From a virus (taxonomy: Duplodnaviria; Caudoviricetes): a DNA stretch of 59,400 nt. Within the stretch, counting starts at the first letter, position 1, and each line of letters opens with the position of its first letter. The notes under the pieces are model-generated. The model did not search any database. It had not been told where the DNA came from and was given only the letters and a program-made list of their open reading frames with translations. The position numbers and the translations under genes are program-made. The stretch is taken from positions 1-59,400 of the IMG/VR virus record IMGVR_UViG_3300032046_000028, one strand, 5' to 3'. Shown here piece by piece: positions 2,998 through 39,981 of this stretch.

Positions 2998-3114
2998 CCA
3001 CTGTCTTTTGCCATTTTAAACAGCGTCTAGTCGTGACCATCGATCTTTCTCGTAAGACCCAAACGTTCACTTTCACTATTTTTCACCTCCCTTGTAGTTT
3101 TTCGCATTTTTCAT

Positions 3115-3450
3115 TCAAATTTTATGACATCTATATGTTGGATACGGAATTGAACATCCGTTGTTTTTTCTTGCAAGTTCCACAAGTTCTTTTGCGTCTT
3201 TTTCAGCAATTTCTATTGCCTTTTCTTTATAGACCTGAATGATGAATTCTTCTCCAACCCAATCTTTCAAAACATAGTCATCTACAACGGTTCTGGTAAC
3301 TCTTAGGGTCTCAGATAAGTTTTGGATAGGTCTGTTAACCAGAGGGGCTTTTGATGCCCTCGTAACGAAAAAGGCAAATCCTGTAGATTCTATGCTGGCT
3401 TTTCTTTGTTCATTAGATGGCGGGATTCTTTCCATCTTTAAAATGAACAT
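3115..3450 (-). CDS. Hypothetical protein
   Basis: ORF in leftward operon, GGAGGTGA SD upstream (start may be a few codons earlier). Confidence 0.5.
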   Translation of the reverse strand: MFILKMERIPPSNEQRKASIESTGFAFFVTRASKAPLVNRPIQNLSETLRVTRTVVDDYVLKDWVGEEFIIQVYKEKAIEIAEKDAKELVELARKNNGCSIPYPTYRCHKI

Positions 3451-3474
3451 GCCAACCCATTTTCATTCACCTCC

Positions 3475-3636
3475 TTAATGGAATAGTTTGTTCCAACATT
3501 CAATGTGATACCTTCGTCGGCGTCCGCCTTTGCTTCCGCGTTTGCTGATTATTTTGTCATCTATCCTAAAGGGGTTTGGGCATGAATAACAAGTGAAACT
3601 TTGTTTAGTACTGTGTAGCCACCGCAGATATTTCAT
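3475..3636 (-). CDS. Small PARP-type-like zinc finger (53 aa, not in ORF track)
   Basis: Manual translation MKYLRW…CYSC…YHIECWNKLFH. Confidence 0.6.
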   Translation of the reverse strand: MKYLRWLHSTKQSFTCYSCPNPFRIDDKIISKRGSKGGRRRRYHIECWNKLFH

Positions 3637-4981: not shown

Positions 4982-5194
4982 TTAGACTGGCATGCGTGCT
5001 GACTTGTGGTAGCATTGGCTTGAGCAGTATTGCTGGTTTGAATGTGCTGGTTGGAATAGTTTTCCGCATTCTGAGCATGCCTTGCTGGGGTTTTTGACTG
5101 AGGTTGCGTAGCATTGGACAGAGCAGAATTTTTGTGCGTGGAATTGTGTTTCGTACTCTTTGCCACAGTGCTGACATTTTTTGGTGTAGACCAT
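4982..5194 (-). CDS. Tandem CxxC…CSxxC (TRASH/MYM-like) zinc-binding protein
   Basis: CQHCGK…FCSVQC and CSECGK…YCSSQC. Confidence 0.65.
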   Translation of the reverse strand: MVYTKKCQHCGKEYETQFHAQKFCSVQCYATSVKNPSKACSECGKLFQPAHSNQQYCSSQCYHKSARMPV

Positions 5195-5274
5195 GATTGT
5201 TCTTCTGTGTTAGGAAATACTTAAGTATTGTGTCTGCGAGTGTGTGGAATGAGAGAGAGAGTGAGTGTGTGTTG

Positions 5275-15856: not shown

Positions 15857-16342
15857 TTACTTAGCAGTCTCCTTTTTGACTGGTACTTTAAAATCGTCGC
15901 GAAATTCTTCTGGACTCACAGCACTTACAAGCAAAGTTTCTAATTCGTTGATGAACCACGCTTTATTACATGTAGCTGTATGTTCAAGCATCCATCCTAC
16001 ACGTTTGAGAATCTGTTTTTTGTTCAGCATTTTCGCTTCCTTTTCTGCTTCTTGCACAATCAAAAGCTTCTTTTGCAAAATCGCATTCTTCGCATAGACC
16101 TCCCGCACTTCGTAGCCTTCCTTGATTAGGCCGTCAACTTCTTCGATGCTGACGCTTTTGAGACTCACAATCTTCTCTGACGGAACGGAGTCGGACTCTT
16201 CAAAAACTAGACCGTGACAGAAAGGGCAGACATGAGTTTCATAGATATTAGGGTCTGAATTGCCGATTGGATCTTCACTTGTTTGTTTGGCAGTGTACAG
16301 AAACACTTTCTTACAGTCAGGATTCAAACATTGAAACTTCAT
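15857..16342 (-). CDS. Zinc-ribbon protein (paralog of 32010..32276)
   Basis: MKFQCLNPDC…HVCPFC…EGYEVREVYAK. Confidence 0.7.
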   Translation of the reverse strand: MKFQCLNPDCKKVFLYTAKQTSEDPIGNSDPNIYETHVCPFCHGLVFEESDSVPSEKIVSLKSVSIEEVDGLIKEGYEVREVYAKNAILQKKLLIVQEAEKEAKMLNKKQILKRVGWMLEHTATCNKAWFINELETLLVSAVSPEEFRDDFKVPVKKETAK

Positions 16343-16787
16343 GTTGTTCCCTTCAAATACAACGAATCCTTTTTTTCCCCGTTTTCCAAAATCCCGCGCA
16401 ACCAAAGAAATTCTCCACCCTCTCCTGCTTCATGAATTTCAAGTTTCTTCAACGGTTTTCCATCCCAAAAAATGTCAGTCATGGTTTTGCTTCCTTCTTT
16501 AACTCTTCAATCTCACGTTGCAACTCCGCAATACAATCCACTAGAACGTCGAGTTTCTCGGTCCAATAATTCTCAGGCAAATTGTCCAAAGAAGCCAGCA
16601 AATTAGCAACTTTGCTTTCGCACTTTTCAGCCTTCAAATTCAAGCCTCCTTCGCGGGAACCACTTTCACTTTTTGGCCTCTCCCAATCGCTGCTACTGCA
16701 CGCAACATTTCAATTAGGGAAACGTCGGCTAAGTCAGGGGTTTTGCTGACTAAAACAAAGTCAGAATCCTTTTTGTTGTTCATTCAT

Positions 16788-18668: not shown

Positions 18669-18848
18669 ATGCCGCCAAAAGGATTCAAAACAATCACAGT
18701 TCAAAAGATAGTCTATGACTACCTAATGACCGAGTACAATGCCCAAAAAGACGAACTGGCAATAAAACAGGGAGTAAAAAGCTTCTCAGCCTACGTCACT
18801 AAACGTCTAGCCCAGCTAATCGAAGAAGACAAGAAACGTAATCCGTAA
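18669..18848 (+). CDS. RHH regulator 2 (59 aa, not in track)
   Basis: KTITVQKIVYDYL…SFSAYVTKRL. Confidence 0.75.
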   Translation: MPPKGFKTITVQKIVYDYLMTEYNAQKDELAIKQGVKSFSAYVTKRLAQLIEEDKKRNP

Positions 18849-18921
18849 CCTTCAAGCCTTTCCGTCTAGCACGTTCCTTCAACAAACTAAACACTTCCTC
18901 AGAAACAACAATCCGTTTCAT
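18799..18921 (-). CDS. RHH regulator 3 (40 aa, not in track)
   Basis: KRIVVSEEVFSLLKERARRKGLKVTDYVSCLL; GGAGG SD. Confidence 0.65.
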   Translation of the reverse strand: MKRIVVSEEVFSLLKERARRKGLKVTDYVSCLLRLAGLDV

Positions 18922-19010
18922 TCCAATCCTCCCGTAAAATATCCCGTAAGTAGAACGGCGATTTAAACCCACGTTCCAACAATCATTCTCGAACCCTAGA
19001 GAGTCTCCCC

Positions 19011-29802: not shown

Positions 29803-31226
29803 GTCTTTACCTTGCTGAACCACTTCAAAAACCATTGAATCACATCTTCTTGGTAGAGTTTATAGTCATAGTATGCACCGAATCCCTTGTTTGCCTGAAC
29901 ATAATATTTACCTACATTTGGATTAGGGAATTCTTTTCGGGCCTCAGCCAACATTTCAATAATGTCCGCACAAAATATCGTGGGATATTCCTGCAATTCT
30001 GATTTATCACAGTCAGGAAGGTCTTCTCGTATCCGTTTTTTGAATTTGCCCTCTGATGCTGTACTCATAATAGTCTCCAAAGGCATCTGCCTTTTGAATG
30101 GTTCAGGCGTAGGCGGTTCCGCACCCGCAGGTCTAGTTCTTATTGTTTTATCTCCAGCCTTGAATTTATCTTCATTCATATAGACAGTCTCCAAAGTACA
30201 TATGCCTCACAGAAGTATTTATGTCCTTCCACAGTTTCAAACCCTCACGTAAACACTGGTTTCTTCCATTTACCATCAGCAAAATCAACCGCCGCTTTCT
30301 CAGTGCAAAACTCAGAATAAGATTGGCCTTCACCAAGAAACATGCAGCCCCGCGCAACACGACCCGCATGAACCCATTTGTCACCGCTTTTCATGATTAT
30401 TTCAGTGCCTTCCTTCATGTCAGGCATAACGTAAACTACATCAGCATGTTTAAACCAGTAATTACCCTTACGGCTATAACAGACGACAACATGAACCTGA
30501 CGCCAAACAATGCCGTCTTTCCATTCAATAAGAACTTTCATGTTTCCACCGCATATTTGACGCTGAATTGTCCATGCTGATGCTCCGCAAACCCTAACTT
30601 ACACAAATGCCCCAAAGCATCACGGACCAAGGCAAATGATGCTTTCATGCCTTTCGCAAAAAGCCGTGTCCAAACAGTTTCCACGTTCAAGCCGCCGTTG
30701 CCCTCTTCTAATAGGCACTCAAGCAATTCACTTTCAAGCGGCAAACTTTCCCTAGCATACTTCCAAGCATAACGAATGACAAACTTGAAATCTTCCCGGT
30801 CAACTTTAGCTAAGAGGTCTTGCCAATTACCAGATGTGACTTGTGCTAGTACAGATTCAGCCAAAATAAAATGTTGAGGATCCTTAATGACTTGCCTAAG
30901 TTGTCTCCAGCCCCGTTTGCTAGCTAGGAAAGGCCGTTCTCCCAAAAGAACCGTGAAACATGCGTGACTGTCAGGCTCAGTTAAAACTCTAGCAAGGGCA
31001 GACTCTAACAATTCAGGACTTTCACCCTTATACTCGAACATTCGGGTCATGCTAGAATCTTTAATTTGTAGTTTCATACGTTTCCCTTCAAAGGCAAGGT
31101 CTGAATCTTCTGGCCATTCTTCAATGTAAACTCGAACCAAACATAATCTTCACCCATGAAATTTACGCTGATCTCAACCGCTTCTTGCGGTCCGTCCTTG
31201 AACCATCCTTTTATCCAACATTTCAT
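29799..31226 (-). other. Leftward hypothetical ORFs 29799..~30180, 30245..30541, 30538..31077 (C-terminal wHTH-like) and 31074..31226
   Basis: ATGA-coupled chain; VRDALGHLCKLGF…QFSV. Confidence 0.55.
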
Positions 31227-31251
31227 AGTTTTCAACCTCCCATTAACAAAG

Positions 31252-31720
31252 GGACATTAAGAAGTTTTGCAGGTGCACCGGCCCAACGTGTCAGCACACC
31301 TTAAACCGCATGTGCCAACCCTTCGAAGATAGCCTGTTTAATGCCTGAATCAAATGTTGGGCCAGAAACCTAACCGCCTTAGTTGTTCAGTTGAGAATGT
31401 TGCTTATGCCCAGAACAGTCCAGAAAAAGCACAGTCCGAAACCGTTGAAAACTGATGCTTCAAACGCTGAGTATAGCTTCAACTGTTGGCCAAACCAATG
31501 CAAAGATTCACGTTACATGAGAGCGCGGTTAACCTGTAAGCCCAGGTTGAACAAACTCTAATGCAAAGCAAACCTGACAGCTTTAGACCCAATGCAAGCT
31601 TTAGCAACACAAGCACAAGGTTGTTTCGTTAGCGGTTTCTCATATGCGACTGTTCCAGTATTACACAACACCCGCTTATTGCACCTGCAAACTCTACCCA
31701 TATTTCACCTCTTAATGCCC
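31252..31720 (-). ncRNA. Candidate large structured non-coding RNA (~470 nt)
   Basis: Nested long-range stems: 13 bp (2 GU) 31252-64/31708-20, perfect 12 bp 31266-77/31680-91, 8 bp 31280-87/31356-63, 7 bp 31383-89/31548-54, plus hairpins; no long ORF. Confidence 0.65.
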
Positions 31721-31768
31721 TATTCCCAAAAGGGAATGTCGTCTTAATTTTCAAAGACTCAAAGGGGC

Positions 31769-31945
31769 TTATTCCTGCATCATATTCTTGAGAGATTCGC
31801 CGCACCCTTGCTTATCAAGGTCAAGGGCCAACCTTTTAATGAAAAAGGCCGCCGTAATCGTCCGTTCTTCCTTGACAAGAACTAAGATTTGGCGCAACCT
31901 TTTCGAGAGGGGTTCTACATTCCAAAGTTTTTCTTTTCCATTCAT
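31769..31945 (-). CDS. Hypothetical 58-aa protein (not in track)
   Basis: MNGKEKLWNVEPLSKRLRQILV…; starts just downstream of the hammerhead. Confidence 0.5.
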   Translation of the reverse strand: MNGKEKLWNVEPLSKRLRQILVLVKEERTITAAFFIKRLALDLDKQGCGESLKNMMQE

Positions 31946-31950
31946 GTTTA

Positions 31951-32014
31951 TTCAGCCCGACCCCACAATAAAAAGGGGTTTCGACCTTGCAGGGTCATCA
32001 TCAGGGGTTCTAAA
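31951..32014 (-). ncRNA. Hammerhead ribozyme, type I
   Basis: UUUAG-AA-CCC CUGAUGA U GACC(CUGCAA)GGUC GAAA CCCC(10-nt loop)GGGG UC GGG CUGAA: full core, three stems, GUC cleavage triplet. Confidence 0.85.
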
Positions 32015-32276
32015 CTTTCTTTACCATCGTTGTCGTCTTCGCATACAATTCTCGAACTTCATAGCCTTCCAAGATTTTCTGGTCAACCTGACCTAAATCC
32101 ACACAAGCAACGCTAACAATCTTTGCAGATTTCTCTGAAATCTCATCTATGTCTAAGCTTTTACAATACGGACAAACGTGCAATTCTAAAGGCTCATTAG
32201 ACTCGATCGAAACGGTTGTCGTGTGAATCGCTGGATAAAGAAAAGTCTTTCCACACTTCAAACATTCAAACTTCAT
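32010..32276 (-). CDS. Zinc-ribbon protein (paralog of 15857..16342)
   Basis: MKFECLKC…HVCPYC…EGYEVRELYAK; GGAGGTGA SD. Confidence 0.75.
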   Translation of the reverse strand: MKFECLKCGKTFLYPAIHTTTVSIESNEPLELHVCPYCKSLDIDEISEKSAKIVSVACVDLGQVDQKILEGYEVRELYAKTTTMVKKV

Positions 32277-32437
32277 GCTGTCACCTCCAACTCTTTCAAA
32301 GTAAATACTTGAGTATGATGATCATTGTCGCAGTCAACAAACACGAATATGCCGTTGGGCTGGCAGTAAACAAATTTGACAGTGCCAAACCAAACCGTGC
32401 CACAGCTCTTCCAGCTAACACGCGTTCCCTTCTGCAC
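32273..32437 (-). CDS. Small beta-barrel (SH3/KOW-like) protein (54 aa, not in track)
   Basis: GAGGTGA SD + GTG; KGTRVSW…GTVKFV…ELEV. Confidence 0.55.
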   Translation of the reverse strand: MQKGTRVSWKSCGTVWFGTVKFVYCQPNGIFVFVDCDNDHHTQVFTLKELEVTA

Positions 32438-33029: not shown

Positions 33030-33347
33030 ATGGACAGAGAAGCATTAATACGCTTGGCAACTGCGATTGATTGTGAAGGATCCGCGTTTATTGCGCATAC
33101 TGGCAAACGTTCTACGCCTAAAGTTGTAATTAGCCAGAAGAATAGAATGTGGTTGGAACGTTTCAGAGAGATGGTTGGATTTGGTTCAATCCAGCGTGCG
33201 GGCCAACATCATGATTGTTTCGACTTGGTTTGGCAGAGCTTCCAAGCGTTGGAAGTCGCATGTTTGACAGTAGACTATACTTGATTGAAGACTGAGAACC
33301 TGAAGAGAATAATTGAGTTCTATTCTGCGAAGGGCATTATCTATTAA
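33030..33347 (+). pseudogene. Single-motif LAGLIDADG-family protein interrupted by an in-frame TGA
   Basis: LATAIDCEGS, ISQK…GFGSI; after TGA (33282-84) the frame continues LKTENLKRIIEFY…*. Confidence 0.7.
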
Positions 33348-33637
33348 GAATCCGAGATATACGTGTACGTGTAGGCGTGTACGTATACTACTTACTACTA
33401 ACTACTACTACTATTCATAACATGAAAAGTATATCCTAAGCATATTATCGAGTGTCTTGCGATTAAGGGTATCAAGTGATAAGCCTTATCGTAAGTCTTA
33501 ACAGTTTGCTCCGAGGTCATAGCAGACAAGGTGCTCCGATAGGCATAGGTCTAAAGGTGCTACACGCCGTGTAGCAAACAAGGGCACGGTATAACTAATA
33601 TACACACTACACCATACCCTATTCACAGTGACCTAAC

Positions 33638-34429
33638 ATGAAAGAAACATTCACCATCATAGGCAAGCGCGGAATAAACATGACTACAATGCAAGGAGAC
33701 ACTGTCAAACAGTGCCCTCACATCAAGCATGGACGCAAGACAGCAGCCTCCGTTGTTGTAAGCCCTTCAACAGTAAAGGACCTATGCACGTCATGTTATA
33801 AGCACTATCAACGCATACATAATCATATACAATACAGCATACCCTAAAAACACAAGCCCTTAGAGACTCAAAACAGACCACCCTTAAAATTCTCAAAACC
33901 TTCACGATCCAAAACTTATCCCACGTAAAGGCGCTTACTTATGCTTAATAGTTTTTGGTGATTGGGGTTTAACTGTGGGTGAACGGAAGAATAATAAGGA
34001 CTTGTTTAGTGTGACCCGAAATCGGGACGTTCTTTATAGGGTATACCTTAAGGATGCACCGTTAGGTTCGTTGATTCTTGGGGGGTATTTCACTAAGAAG
34101 CGTTGGCATAGGTTTTGCGAGTTGGTTGGTAGGTTGGAACGGAGTGATTTAGAATGAGTTGTCCAATACCTGGCACAAAAGATGGTGTTCATCCAGATGG
34201 GTCATATTGCCCTTACTCTATAGCAGTTGTGGGTACGACTGATTTCATATCGGCATCGTTGGTGATGAGCGATTTTGTTTGTCCTGACTGTAATAGTCCA
34301 TGTAATATTCCTGATAATTATTGCTCGAATTGTGGTATACCTTTGAAGGATAAAGAATTGCTGAAGAATCCTCGTCATTATGATTCGCGTTATCTGCCGA
34401 AAGGACTTTCAAGGAGATTTAAGAAGTGA
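33638..34429 (+). other. Small ORFs 33638..33847, 33975..34157 and zinc-ribbon 34154..34429
   Basis: CPDC…YCSNCG in the last. Confidence 0.5.
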
Positions 34430-39323: not shown

Positions 39324-39383
39324 ATGTTAATGTGGCAACTTCGCTAGAGAACAGTTCCAGTTTTCCTTATATGTTACGCATAT

Positions 39384-39512
39384 TTACGTACTGATGGAGA
39401 CATCAGTATGAGCAGTATCGGGACTACCAACATACATTCCTAGAACAAAGAAAACCAGTCCAAGCAGAAGAAATGTCATAAGCACCATTATACCCCGTTT
39501 CCTTACATTCAT
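39384..39512 (-). CDS. 42-aa single-TM peptide (not in track)
   Basis: MNVRKRGIMVLMTFLLLGLVFFVLG…; ATGA-coupled to AbrB. Confidence 0.5.
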   Translation of the reverse strand: MNVRKRGIMVLMTFLLLGLVFFVLGMYVGSPDTAHTDVSIST

Positions 39513-39649
39513 TTCTTTCTAACCTCCACATGTTGATTCGTAACATTCCAGATTAGTTTGTCGCCCTTTTCCAACTTCAAACCTTTCTGAATAGCAATAG
39601 GAATTGTGGTTATTCCGCGAGTTCCAACAGTAGACTCGGCAACATCCAT
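39509..39649 (-). CDS. AbrB/MazE/SpoVT-family DNA-binding protein (46 aa, not in track)
   Basis: STVGTRGITTIPIAIQKGLKLEKGDKLIW…VEVRK. Confidence 0.75.
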   Translation of the reverse strand: MDVAESTVGTRGITTIPIAIQKGLKLEKGDKLIWNVTNQHVEVRKK

Positions 39650-39663
39650 CCTTATTTTCCTCG

Positions 39664-39861
39664 TTAGAAGCTAATTCCTGGAGTTGAATTTACATTTCTA
39701 ACTAGCATATAACTGGCTACAAATCCAAAGATTGAAAGTATCGCTACGGATATTCCTAAAACTGGAAACTGAAGAAGAGTTATCATAACAATTCCTAATA
39801 GCAAAGTAATTGTAAAGAAAGCACTTAGGCCAGCAGCAAAATATTTCAACCCCCTTTCCAT
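39664..39861 (-). CDS. Two-TM membrane protein
   Basis: Hydrophobic; GGAGG SD. Confidence 0.6.
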   Translation of the reverse strand: MERGLKYFAAGLSAFFTITLLLGIVMITLLQFPVLGISVAILSIFGFVASYMLVRNVNSTPGISF

Positions 39862-39981
39862 TTTATGCCTCCACAGCTTCTTCTTTTTTCATCTTTTACA
39901 ACCTCTATCTTAGATAATGCTTAGAAGCTTATAAGATTATCTATTCATGGTTCTGTTAAGTCTTCGTGAGATATAGGAACT

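Follow-up and report, generated by a model that had tools for sequence, protein, structure and literature searches.

A rare family of predicted large, pseudoknotted phage RNAs next to hammerhead ribozymes

The pRNA of phi29 is a phage-encoded structured RNA of ~120-174 nucleotides (nt) with its own promoter, from a phage group different from the one described here; a covarying loop-loop pairing is conserved in it while the primary sequence drifts. Few bacterial or phage RNAs of more than ~400 nt are known that have several conserved pseudoknots, and the functions known for them are mostly those of ribozymes or ribonucleoprotein cores. Each new class of large pseudoknotted RNA has been a lead to new biochemistry. 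RNAs of the ROOL, GOLLD and OLE type, the subject of cryo-EM work, have been reported to form homo-oligomers (PMC12286853). The hammerhead ribozymes of phages have been proposed, in one account, to cut long transcripts into gene-length messenger RNAs (mRNAs), and the same account describes an arrangement in prophages in which two hammerheads surround one small gene (PMC3088659). Here we describe a 470-nt element on the minus strand of the IMG/VR virus record IMGVR_UViG_3300032046_000028, positions 1 to 59,400 (this whole stretch of 59,400 nt is called the window below). An original prediction, made from the letters alone, had proposed a large, highly base-paired non-coding RNA (ncRNA) at this place. 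Judged at the level of sequence, the predicted RNA is real, conserved and pseudoknotted, belongs to a new family, and has a hammerhead directly 5' of it in three relatives. The further reading, according to which the element encodes a self-contained and highly folded ncRNA of this new family, made from the minus strand within a leftward operon of small genes, has in our judgement an even chance of being right.

Conservation of a folded element in a gene-free stretch

The record is a complete 59.4-kb uncultured virus with direct terminal repeats. Its layout is that of a tailed phage, with terminase, portal and a 1,599-codon open reading frame (ORF) of tape-measure size, on the plus strand from ~34.9 kb. 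Terminase identity to any cultured phage is at most 28%. The element lies inside a leftward block of small ORFs (~33.0 to 29.1 kb, minus strand), 3.2 kb away from the terminase genes. It occupies most of 31141-31787, one of four stretches in the genome of at least 250 nt without an ORF of at least 70 codons; the other three are 33285-34153, which separates the packaging genes from the divergent leftward block, 39324-39981 and 18719-19010. Between 31200 and 31780 there are 5-18 stops per frame in all six frames, with TAA, TAG and TGA mixed, and therefore no single stop reassignment opens a frame. The mixed stops ruled out a gene or stop-codon recoding as the cause of the gap, and the ORF-poor gap of ~470 nt originally described is thus borne out. 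The element is single-copy within the window.

The minus strand of 31240-31730 folds with a minimum free energy of -170.8 kcal/mol, compared with -143.2 +/- 6.5 kcal/mol for shuffled sequences (z -4.22), and 0 of 100 shuffles was as good, in keeping with the high degree of base pairing that had been claimed. The same test on the plus strand gave -127 kcal/mol (z -3.13).

Relatives were sought at both the nucleotide and the protein level. A blastn search with the element against 50,697 phage records gave no match, and neither did single-sequence blastn and nhmmer searches against 48 loci collected from IMG/VR by terminase relatedness. By translated comparison, two of these loci (L002 and L003) have the 200-codon ORF of the window, which sits just downstream of the element, and both carry an equally long gene-free stretch at the same place. 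A profile built from these three sequences (window, L002, L003) found a fourth member in L005, so that the element is present, in a syntenic place, in 3 of the 48 terminase-related loci. The four members are as follows:

Window, 31720-31251, minus strand: element, 470 nt
L002, 3040-2559, minus strand: element, 482 nt
L003, 5241-4760, minus strand: element, 482 nt
L005, 5716-5237, minus strand: element, 480 nt

Mean column identity across the four members is 62%. An nhmmer search over 181 fetched loci found no further members. Five pattern scans of IMG/VR were also made: one gave 15 stretches of which 1 was real, another gave nothing new among the matches listed, two more returned known contigs only, and the last gave 58 stretches, 56 of them new and none of the 56 homologous. 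A scan of JGI metagenomes gave four stretches, all of them chance matches in coding DNA, and a scan of 185,579 prokaryote genomes found no member. On this evidence the predicted family is real but rare, with four members.

Covariation was assessed in two ways. In the first, L002, L003 and L005 were aligned with MAFFT, unfitted to structure, and RNAalifold predicts 126 pairs on this alignment. Standard pairs make up 89.9% of the cells, versus 34-44% when the partners are slid by 1-3 columns, and both-side changes occur in 46 of the 126 pairs, versus 3-7 in the slid controls; none of 500 shuffles reached any of five measures. In the second, the window, which is too diverged for reliable placement by MAFFT, was registered by hand on twelve helices and the pairs were counted by script. 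In this four-way table (12 helices, 90 columns), 345 of 360 cells are canonical (112-172 of 360 in slid controls), both-side changes are found in 56 of the 90 columns (7-13 when slid), and the window alone pairs at 86 of 90. The helix P3 is fully rewritten between the phages yet stays complementary, reading UGCAGGUGCA, UUGCAGAGAG, GUGCAGAGAG and ACACGGGGAA, each with its exact complement. Compensatory changes keep up more than 50 pairs at a mean column identity of 62%, which requires purifying selection on structure. The table holds 43 G-U and 0 A-C cells, which identifies the minus strand as the functional one, as had been proposed, and speaks for RNA rather than duplex DNA.

The comparison with known families used the Rfam 15 covariance models, among them ROOL, GOLLD, OLE, raiA, HEARO, RNase P, transfer-messenger RNA (tmRNA), group I and II introns and pRNA. 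At gathering score there were no matches in the whole window, and at E values up to 10 there were none in 30800-32400. The three relatives, searched at E up to 1, gave no relevant match and only two chance eukaryotic hits. ARAGORN found no transfer RNA (tRNA) or tmRNA genes in the whole window. The view that no known RNA class is present was thus upheld, and the predicted 470-nt RNA is outside every Rfam 15 family and constitutes a new one. In the full-text literature outside subscription journals and supplementary files, no hammerhead-linked large phage RNA of such a kind was found described. A guide or scaffold RNA of IscB/TnpB, or a retron RNA, was considered and rejected, as no nuclease or reverse-transcriptase family occurs among ten neighbouring ORFs (Pfam, PHROG).

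The original prediction had asked for an Rfam scan with Infernal, which gave no match, and for a homologue search with covariation analysis, which gave three relatives and strong covariation. It had also named four outcomes that would speak against it: a miniature inverted-repeat transposable element (MITE), a degraded gene, lack of covariation and a folding energy within the shuffled range. The folding energy lies outside that range, and a MITE or degraded gene is not indicated because the element is single-copy, has no coding signal and covaries.

Architecture of the predicted RNA and its hammerheads

The helix labels used here are our own, and element position n corresponds to window position 31721-n. 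The parts of the predicted fold are listed in the order in which the text takes them:

31251-31720, minus strand: structured RNA element, 470 nt; non-coding, z -4.2, with homologues and covariation
31707-31720, minus strand: 5' strand of P1-P2 (GGGCAUUAAGAGGU); pairs with 31251-31265 and holds a conserved GAGG resembling a Shine-Dalgarno (SD) sequence
31251-31265, minus strand: 3' strand of P1-P2; partner of 31707-31720
31680-31691, minus strand: 5' strand of P3 (UUUGCAGGUGCA); perfect 12 base pairs (bp) with 31266-31277, both-side changes in 8 of 10 columns
31266-31277, minus strand: 3' strand of P3; contiguous with the 3' strand of P9
31648-31658, minus strand: 5' strand of P4, which closes domain I; partner 31410-31420, both-side changes in 4 of 9 columns
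31410-31420, minus strand: 3' strand of P4; partner of 31648-31658
31504-31575, minus strand: long hairpin P8 (P8a/b/c), with the conserved block UUARCCGCGC
31548-31554, minus strand: 5' strand of PKa (UUGUUCA); pairs with 31383-31389, at the 5' flank of P8c
31383-31389, minus strand: 3' strand of PKa (UGAACAA), in the inter-domain linker
31525-31532, minus strand: 5' strand of PKb (UUAACCGC); pairs with 31370-31377 and overlaps the lower 4 bp of P8c
31370-31377, minus strand: 3' strand of PKb (GCGGUUAG), part of AAGGCGGYUAGGUU
31356-31365, minus strand: 5' strand of P9, which closes domain II; partner 31278-31287, both-side changes in 9 of 9 columns
31278-31287, minus strand: 3' strand of P9; partner of 31356-31365
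31290-31319, minus strand: P11 hairpin, loop 31301-31306 (GUUUAA); both-side changes in 8 of 10 columns
31336-31341, minus strand: 5' strand of PK2 (UUAAAC); lies in the middle hairpin loop of domain II and pairs with the P11 loop

The two ends of the element are joined by P1, P2 and P3. P1 covaries, as GGGCA/UGCCC versus GGGUC/GACCC, and P2 pairs the SD-like GAGG with CCUC or CUUC, which resemble an anti-SD sequence; an A-rich strand links P2 to P3. The outer stem had been described as 13 bp with 2 G-U pairs; it is present, and was counted here as 14 bp with 2 G-U. The perfect 12-bp stem inside it, UUUGCAGGUGCA/UGCACCUGCAAA, is fully paired as described. P3 and P9 probably stack coaxially, as suggested by their contiguous 3' strands. 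The 47-codon ORF that had been reported with its SD sequence in the outer stem does exist (31558-31701), and its SD-like GAGG falls in P2; no ORF is kept at its place in L002, L003 or L005.

Domain I consists of P4, P6 and the long P8 hairpin, with further stems outside the four-phage register. Both-side changes occur in 7 of 9 columns of P8a, 3 of 5 of P8b and 4 of 8 of P8c. The most conserved block of the element, AAGGCGGYUAGGUU, lies in the linker between the domains, and two pairings connect this linker with P8. In PKa, 24 of 24 cells are canonical across the four phages, compared with 5-10 of 24 when slid; the pairs are UGUUCA/UGAACA in the window, AUUCUG/CAGGAU in L002, AUCUUG/CAGGAU in L003 and AUCUAG/CUAGAU in L005. 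PKb joins the two most conserved blocks, UUARCCGC with GCGGYUAG, and its Y:R pair covaries: the window and L003 have U:A, whereas L002 and L005 have C:G. The 3' strands of PKa and PKb are separated by a constant 6-nt spacer, with the PKa strand upstream in the linker, and the strand order of the two is that of an H-type (double) pseudoknot. A UCGC/GCGG hairpin predicted in the linker by RNAalifold was rejected because it conflicts with PKb and cannot be formed by the window sequence.

In domain II, the PK2 pairing between the loop of the middle hairpin and that of P11 has both-side changes in 4 of 6 columns, and reads UUAAAC/GUUUAA, UUAAGC/GCUUAA, CUAAGC/GCUUAG and CUAGC/GCUAG in the four phages. 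This contact can be made within one molecule or between molecules, as both are compatible with the sequence. Most of the nested stems originally listed have a place in the conserved fold. The pairings UUAAAC/GUUUAA and UUGUUCA/UGAACAA are conserved and covarying and both turn out to be pseudoknots, while GGCCCAAC/GUUGGGCC and AACCUG/CAGGUU are conserved, covarying helices; GUUGAA/UUCAAC and AGCGG/CCGCU were found where they had been placed in the window. The three UUGCAUU copies noted in the window are real, but they look incidental because the three relatives have none.

Directly after the stop codon of the upstream gene, L002, L003 and L005 each carry a predicted type I hammerhead whose cleavage site abuts G1 of the element. 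The core reads CUGAUGAG ... CGAAAC ... GUC, then the cut, in L002 and L003, and CUGACGAG ... CGAAAU ... AUA, then the cut, in L005; natural active hammerheads with an AUA triplet are described in PMC1636495. The window differs in having two hammerhead-like sequences:

31946-32016, minus strand: upstream hammerhead, type I, with CUGAUGA at 32004-31998, GAAA(C), GUC and a predicted cut at 31959/31958
31721-31768, minus strand: hammerhead remnant, directly 5' of the element, with stems I, II and III kept

The upstream hammerhead has one extra U between A9 and stem II and an otherwise intact core; one natural hammerhead is active with an additional residue there (PMC1636495). Its predicted cut lies ~240 nt before the element and ahead of a 58-codon ORF, which matches the hammerhead noted in the original prediction. 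Intact-looking cores are therefore found in all four phages, and stems II and III covary: stem II occurs as GUCCC/GGGAC, GCCUA/UAGGC, GCUAAG/CUUAGC and GACC/GGUC, and stem III as ACCAC/GUGGU, AUACCAAG/CUUGGUAU and ACCCC/GGGGU. Stems II and III are capped by loops and stem I is open, as in type I hammerheads. No hammerhead is found in the whole window at the Rfam gathering score. A loose hammerhead-core pattern gives 17 matches in the whole window versus 6.4 expected, among which by eye only that at 31979-32004 has a stem II hairpin.

The remnant sits exactly where the relatives carry their ribozyme. Its core has CUUUGAG and CGAC instead of CUGAUGAG and CGAAA and does not pass the core test; we infer that it should be inactive, because it departs from the established core requirements. 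The proposed link between a hammerhead and the RNA is upheld, and it is closer than the window alone could show: in the relatives the ribozyme abuts the RNA and would generate its 5' end, and the window has a mutated remnant at that spot. In the relatives, the stretch directly 3' of the cut, of the form GGGYN (GGGUC in L002 and L003, GGGCA in L005), is complementary both to the other strand of stem I, just ahead of the hammerhead core, and to the 3' end of the element, with which it would form P1.

Neighbouring genes and competing readings

The genes nearest to the element in the window are:

31769-31945, minus strand: 58-codon ORF without a family match, flanked upstream by the intact-looking hammerhead and downstream by the remnant
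31074-31235, minus strand: first downstream ORF, 53 codons; its SD sequence starts ~14 nt after the element
30538-31077, minus strand: winged-helix gene, conserved beside the element in four phages; 179-amino-acid (aa) form with a winged-helix C-terminal domain

On the upstream side the four phages carry unrelated genes, while the hammerhead, the RNA and the winged-helix gene stay together. The gene immediately downstream varies: it can be the winged-helix gene itself, the 53-codon ORF or a zinc-finger-like ORF of 67 codons. Apart from weak zinc-ribbon hits, the ten neighbouring ORFs matched no family in Pfam or PHROG, and the 58-codon ORF has no relatives. The AlphaFold2 model of the 179-aa protein (predicted local distance difference test score, pLDDT, 87) has no Foldseek match in the PDB at E 0.001 or better, and its sole local likeness is to Fur- and CRP-type proteins, in their winged-helix domains. 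A search of IMG/VR with the 200-aa neighbour alone found nothing, and one with an alignment of it found the same three contigs only. In a search of 5.8 billion protein clusters, 2 of 124 candidates hold, namely the protein itself and one other (P0002); the winged-helix gene family is very rare, as it has this one extra homologue.

Several further observations concern these neighbours. The 53-codon ORF and the 179-aa form overlap, stop on ATG (ATGA, 31074-31077), which suggests translational coupling. Paralogues of two of the small flanking proteins lie side by side and in reverse order at 16064-16455 on the minus strand of the window: the 88-aa zinc-ribbon protein (32010-32276) is 47% identical over 93 positions to 16064-16342, and the 53-aa protein (31074-31235) is 34% identical over 38 positions to 16342-16455. 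In L002, a 150-aa protein encoded upstream of the hammerhead (3095-3547, minus strand) has a weak match to PF24203 (E 0.0035; 18.4 bits versus a cutoff of 27). PF24203 is a phage ProQ C-terminal-like domain, and ProQ-type proteins bind RNA; this candidate ProQ-like protein is absent from the other three phages. In L005, the winged-helix frame seems open for ~100 nt above its first listed start (TTG 5119), after a GGAG (5119-5236, minus strand), and, read by eye, the true start may be a non-standard codon.

Under the preferred reading, that of a self-contained folded RNA, the events would be as follows. Cleavage: The hammerhead would fold and cut the polycistronic transcript before transcription of the element is complete. 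Strand swap: The freed 5'-OH strand (GGGUC or GGGCA), formerly one side of stem I, would swap to the 3'-terminal GACCC or UGCCC to form P1 once the 3' end emerges, ~480 nt later, and would thereby close the P1-P3 clamp. Closure: The closed clamp would make the cut irreversible and bury both ends, and the RNA would become a compact particle that resists nucleases. In the lineage of the window, the adjacent hammerhead would have decayed, and the second, intact-looking one would cut 240 nt upstream of the element. The use of one strand for stem I before the cut and for P1 after it would, if true, be a simple way to couple cleavage to folding. Function is the weakest step of this reading: we suppose an autonomous RNA like ROOL, GOLLD and OLE, which might serve as a scaffold or decoy, assemble itself into a particle or act as a ribozyme. 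It may do so together with the winged-helix protein that is always encoded downstream. An autonomous RNA is favoured because of the size, the end clamp, the double pseudoknot, the loop-loop contact and the mosaic flanks.

A number of points count against this reading or temper the evidence for it. The family has four members, all from related phages, and common ancestry inflates the covariation counts. The 126-pair structure was derived from the same alignment on which it was tested, which is circular, and the register of the four-way table was chosen by hand and is biased towards pairing. The hammerheads score low: that of L002 has 19.9 bits against RF00163 (cutoff 34), with E 0.007 and the full model aligned, and that of the window has 12.5 bits against RF02275 (cutoff 52), with E 1.2. 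PKb overlaps four pairs of P8c, and the two cannot form together; either PKa/PKb and the lower P8c would make up a conformational switch, or those four pairs would be absent from the native fold. Transcription, the cut and both RNA ends are predictions from sequence. Among the sequencing runs listed for this stretch none is recorded as RNA; the one run found is of DNA and may be the source of the contig. In the window the cut would leave the 58-codon ORF joined to the RNA, so that an exact 5' end would not be essential. A consensus scan of the window detected neither a sigma-70-like promoter right before the element nor an intrinsic terminator right after it. Finally, an SD sequence and start codon follow the element within ~15-30 nt on the same strand in all four phages, which suits a leader or intercistronic element equally.

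It is this last alternative that competes most seriously. The element would act in cis, as a structured leader or an intercistronic element: after the hammerhead cut it would remain at the head of the downstream message, where it would block 5'-end-dependent decay, gate translation through the GAGG/CCUC of P2, or both, and might sense a ligand or protein through the choice between P8c and PKa/PKb. The close spacing to an SD sequence and start codon in the four phages fits such a role, as does the scan of the window, with no terminator-like site before the next ORF and no promoter-like site just upstream. A gene of the winged-helix family lies downstream in all four phages, the mutually exclusive pairings offer a possible switch, the 58-codon ORF of the window would stay attached after cleavage, and a role in making gene-length mRNAs has been proposed for phage hammerheads (PMC3088659). 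However, the gene immediately downstream differs among the four phages, the RNA of the window would be in the middle of the message after cleavage rather than at its 5' end, and the SD-like GAGG paired in P2 is not the actual downstream SD sequence, which is outside the fold. The architecture weighs in the same direction. With 470-480 nt, ~15 helices, a double pseudoknot and a loop-loop contact, the element far exceeds any known bacterial leader or riboswitch in size and complexity, and a full clamp of 5' and 3' ends is typical of stable excised RNAs. We hold the leader reading to be unlikely, if a serious contender. Were the element no more than an elaborate leader of an mRNA, the finding would carry less weight.

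A role at the level of DNA, as a replication origin, packaging site or protein-binding array whose RNA fold would be incidental, appears very improbable. The many inverted repeats, the distance of 3.2 kb from the terminase genes and the neighbouring winged-helix gene, which resembles those of DNA-binding proteins, would be in line with it, but the strand-specific excess of G-U over A-C cells fits RNA rather than duplex DNA. Nested helices of long range, a pair of pseudoknots and a hammerhead joined to the 5' end likewise belong to RNA, and the relatives lack the three direct UUGCAUU repeats. That the element is the remnant of a decayed gene or mobile element without present function is barely credible: a decayed hammerhead does adjoin it in the window and the region is mosaic, with upstream genes that differ in the four phages, but it is single-copy, has no open or conserved frame, and keeps more than 50 pairs through compensatory changes although the sequences have diverged to a mean column identity of 62%.

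Comparison with known systems

Neither the predicted flanking ribozyme, a type I hammerhead, nor its phage context is out of the ordinary. The ribozyme resembles the type I phage hammerheads (RF00163; PMC3088659), as that source describes them, in its core, its three stems with stem I open and its GUC or AUA triplet, and like them it lies between operon genes right after a stop codon. The two hammerheads of the window, one of them decayed, enclose one small gene, an arrangement that the same paper describes. The ribozyme is only a 5' appendage of the element, whereas the 470-nt RNA downstream of it is not a hammerhead. With the pRNA of phi29 the element shares its nature as a structured phage RNA with a covarying loop-loop pairing, but it has no Rfam match to that family.

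The nearest likeness in general character is to ROOL, GOLLD and OLE, which like the element are large, intricately folded orphan RNAs; the element is phage-borne. It differs from them in giving no covariance-model match at E up to 10, in being smaller, in being fused to a hammerhead and in lying inside a protein-coding operon. That it represents a new large autonomous class of phage RNA on a par with ROOL, GOLLD and OLE, in which the competition between stem I and P1 would act as a one-way cleavage switch and PKa/PKb and the loop-loop pair would serve catalysis, self-assembly into multimers or the capture of a host or phage factor, is a tentative proposal that falls somewhat short of an even chance. 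Its loop-loop complementarity could in principle act between molecules, in a manner comparable to the homo-oligomers of ROOL, GOLLD and OLE.

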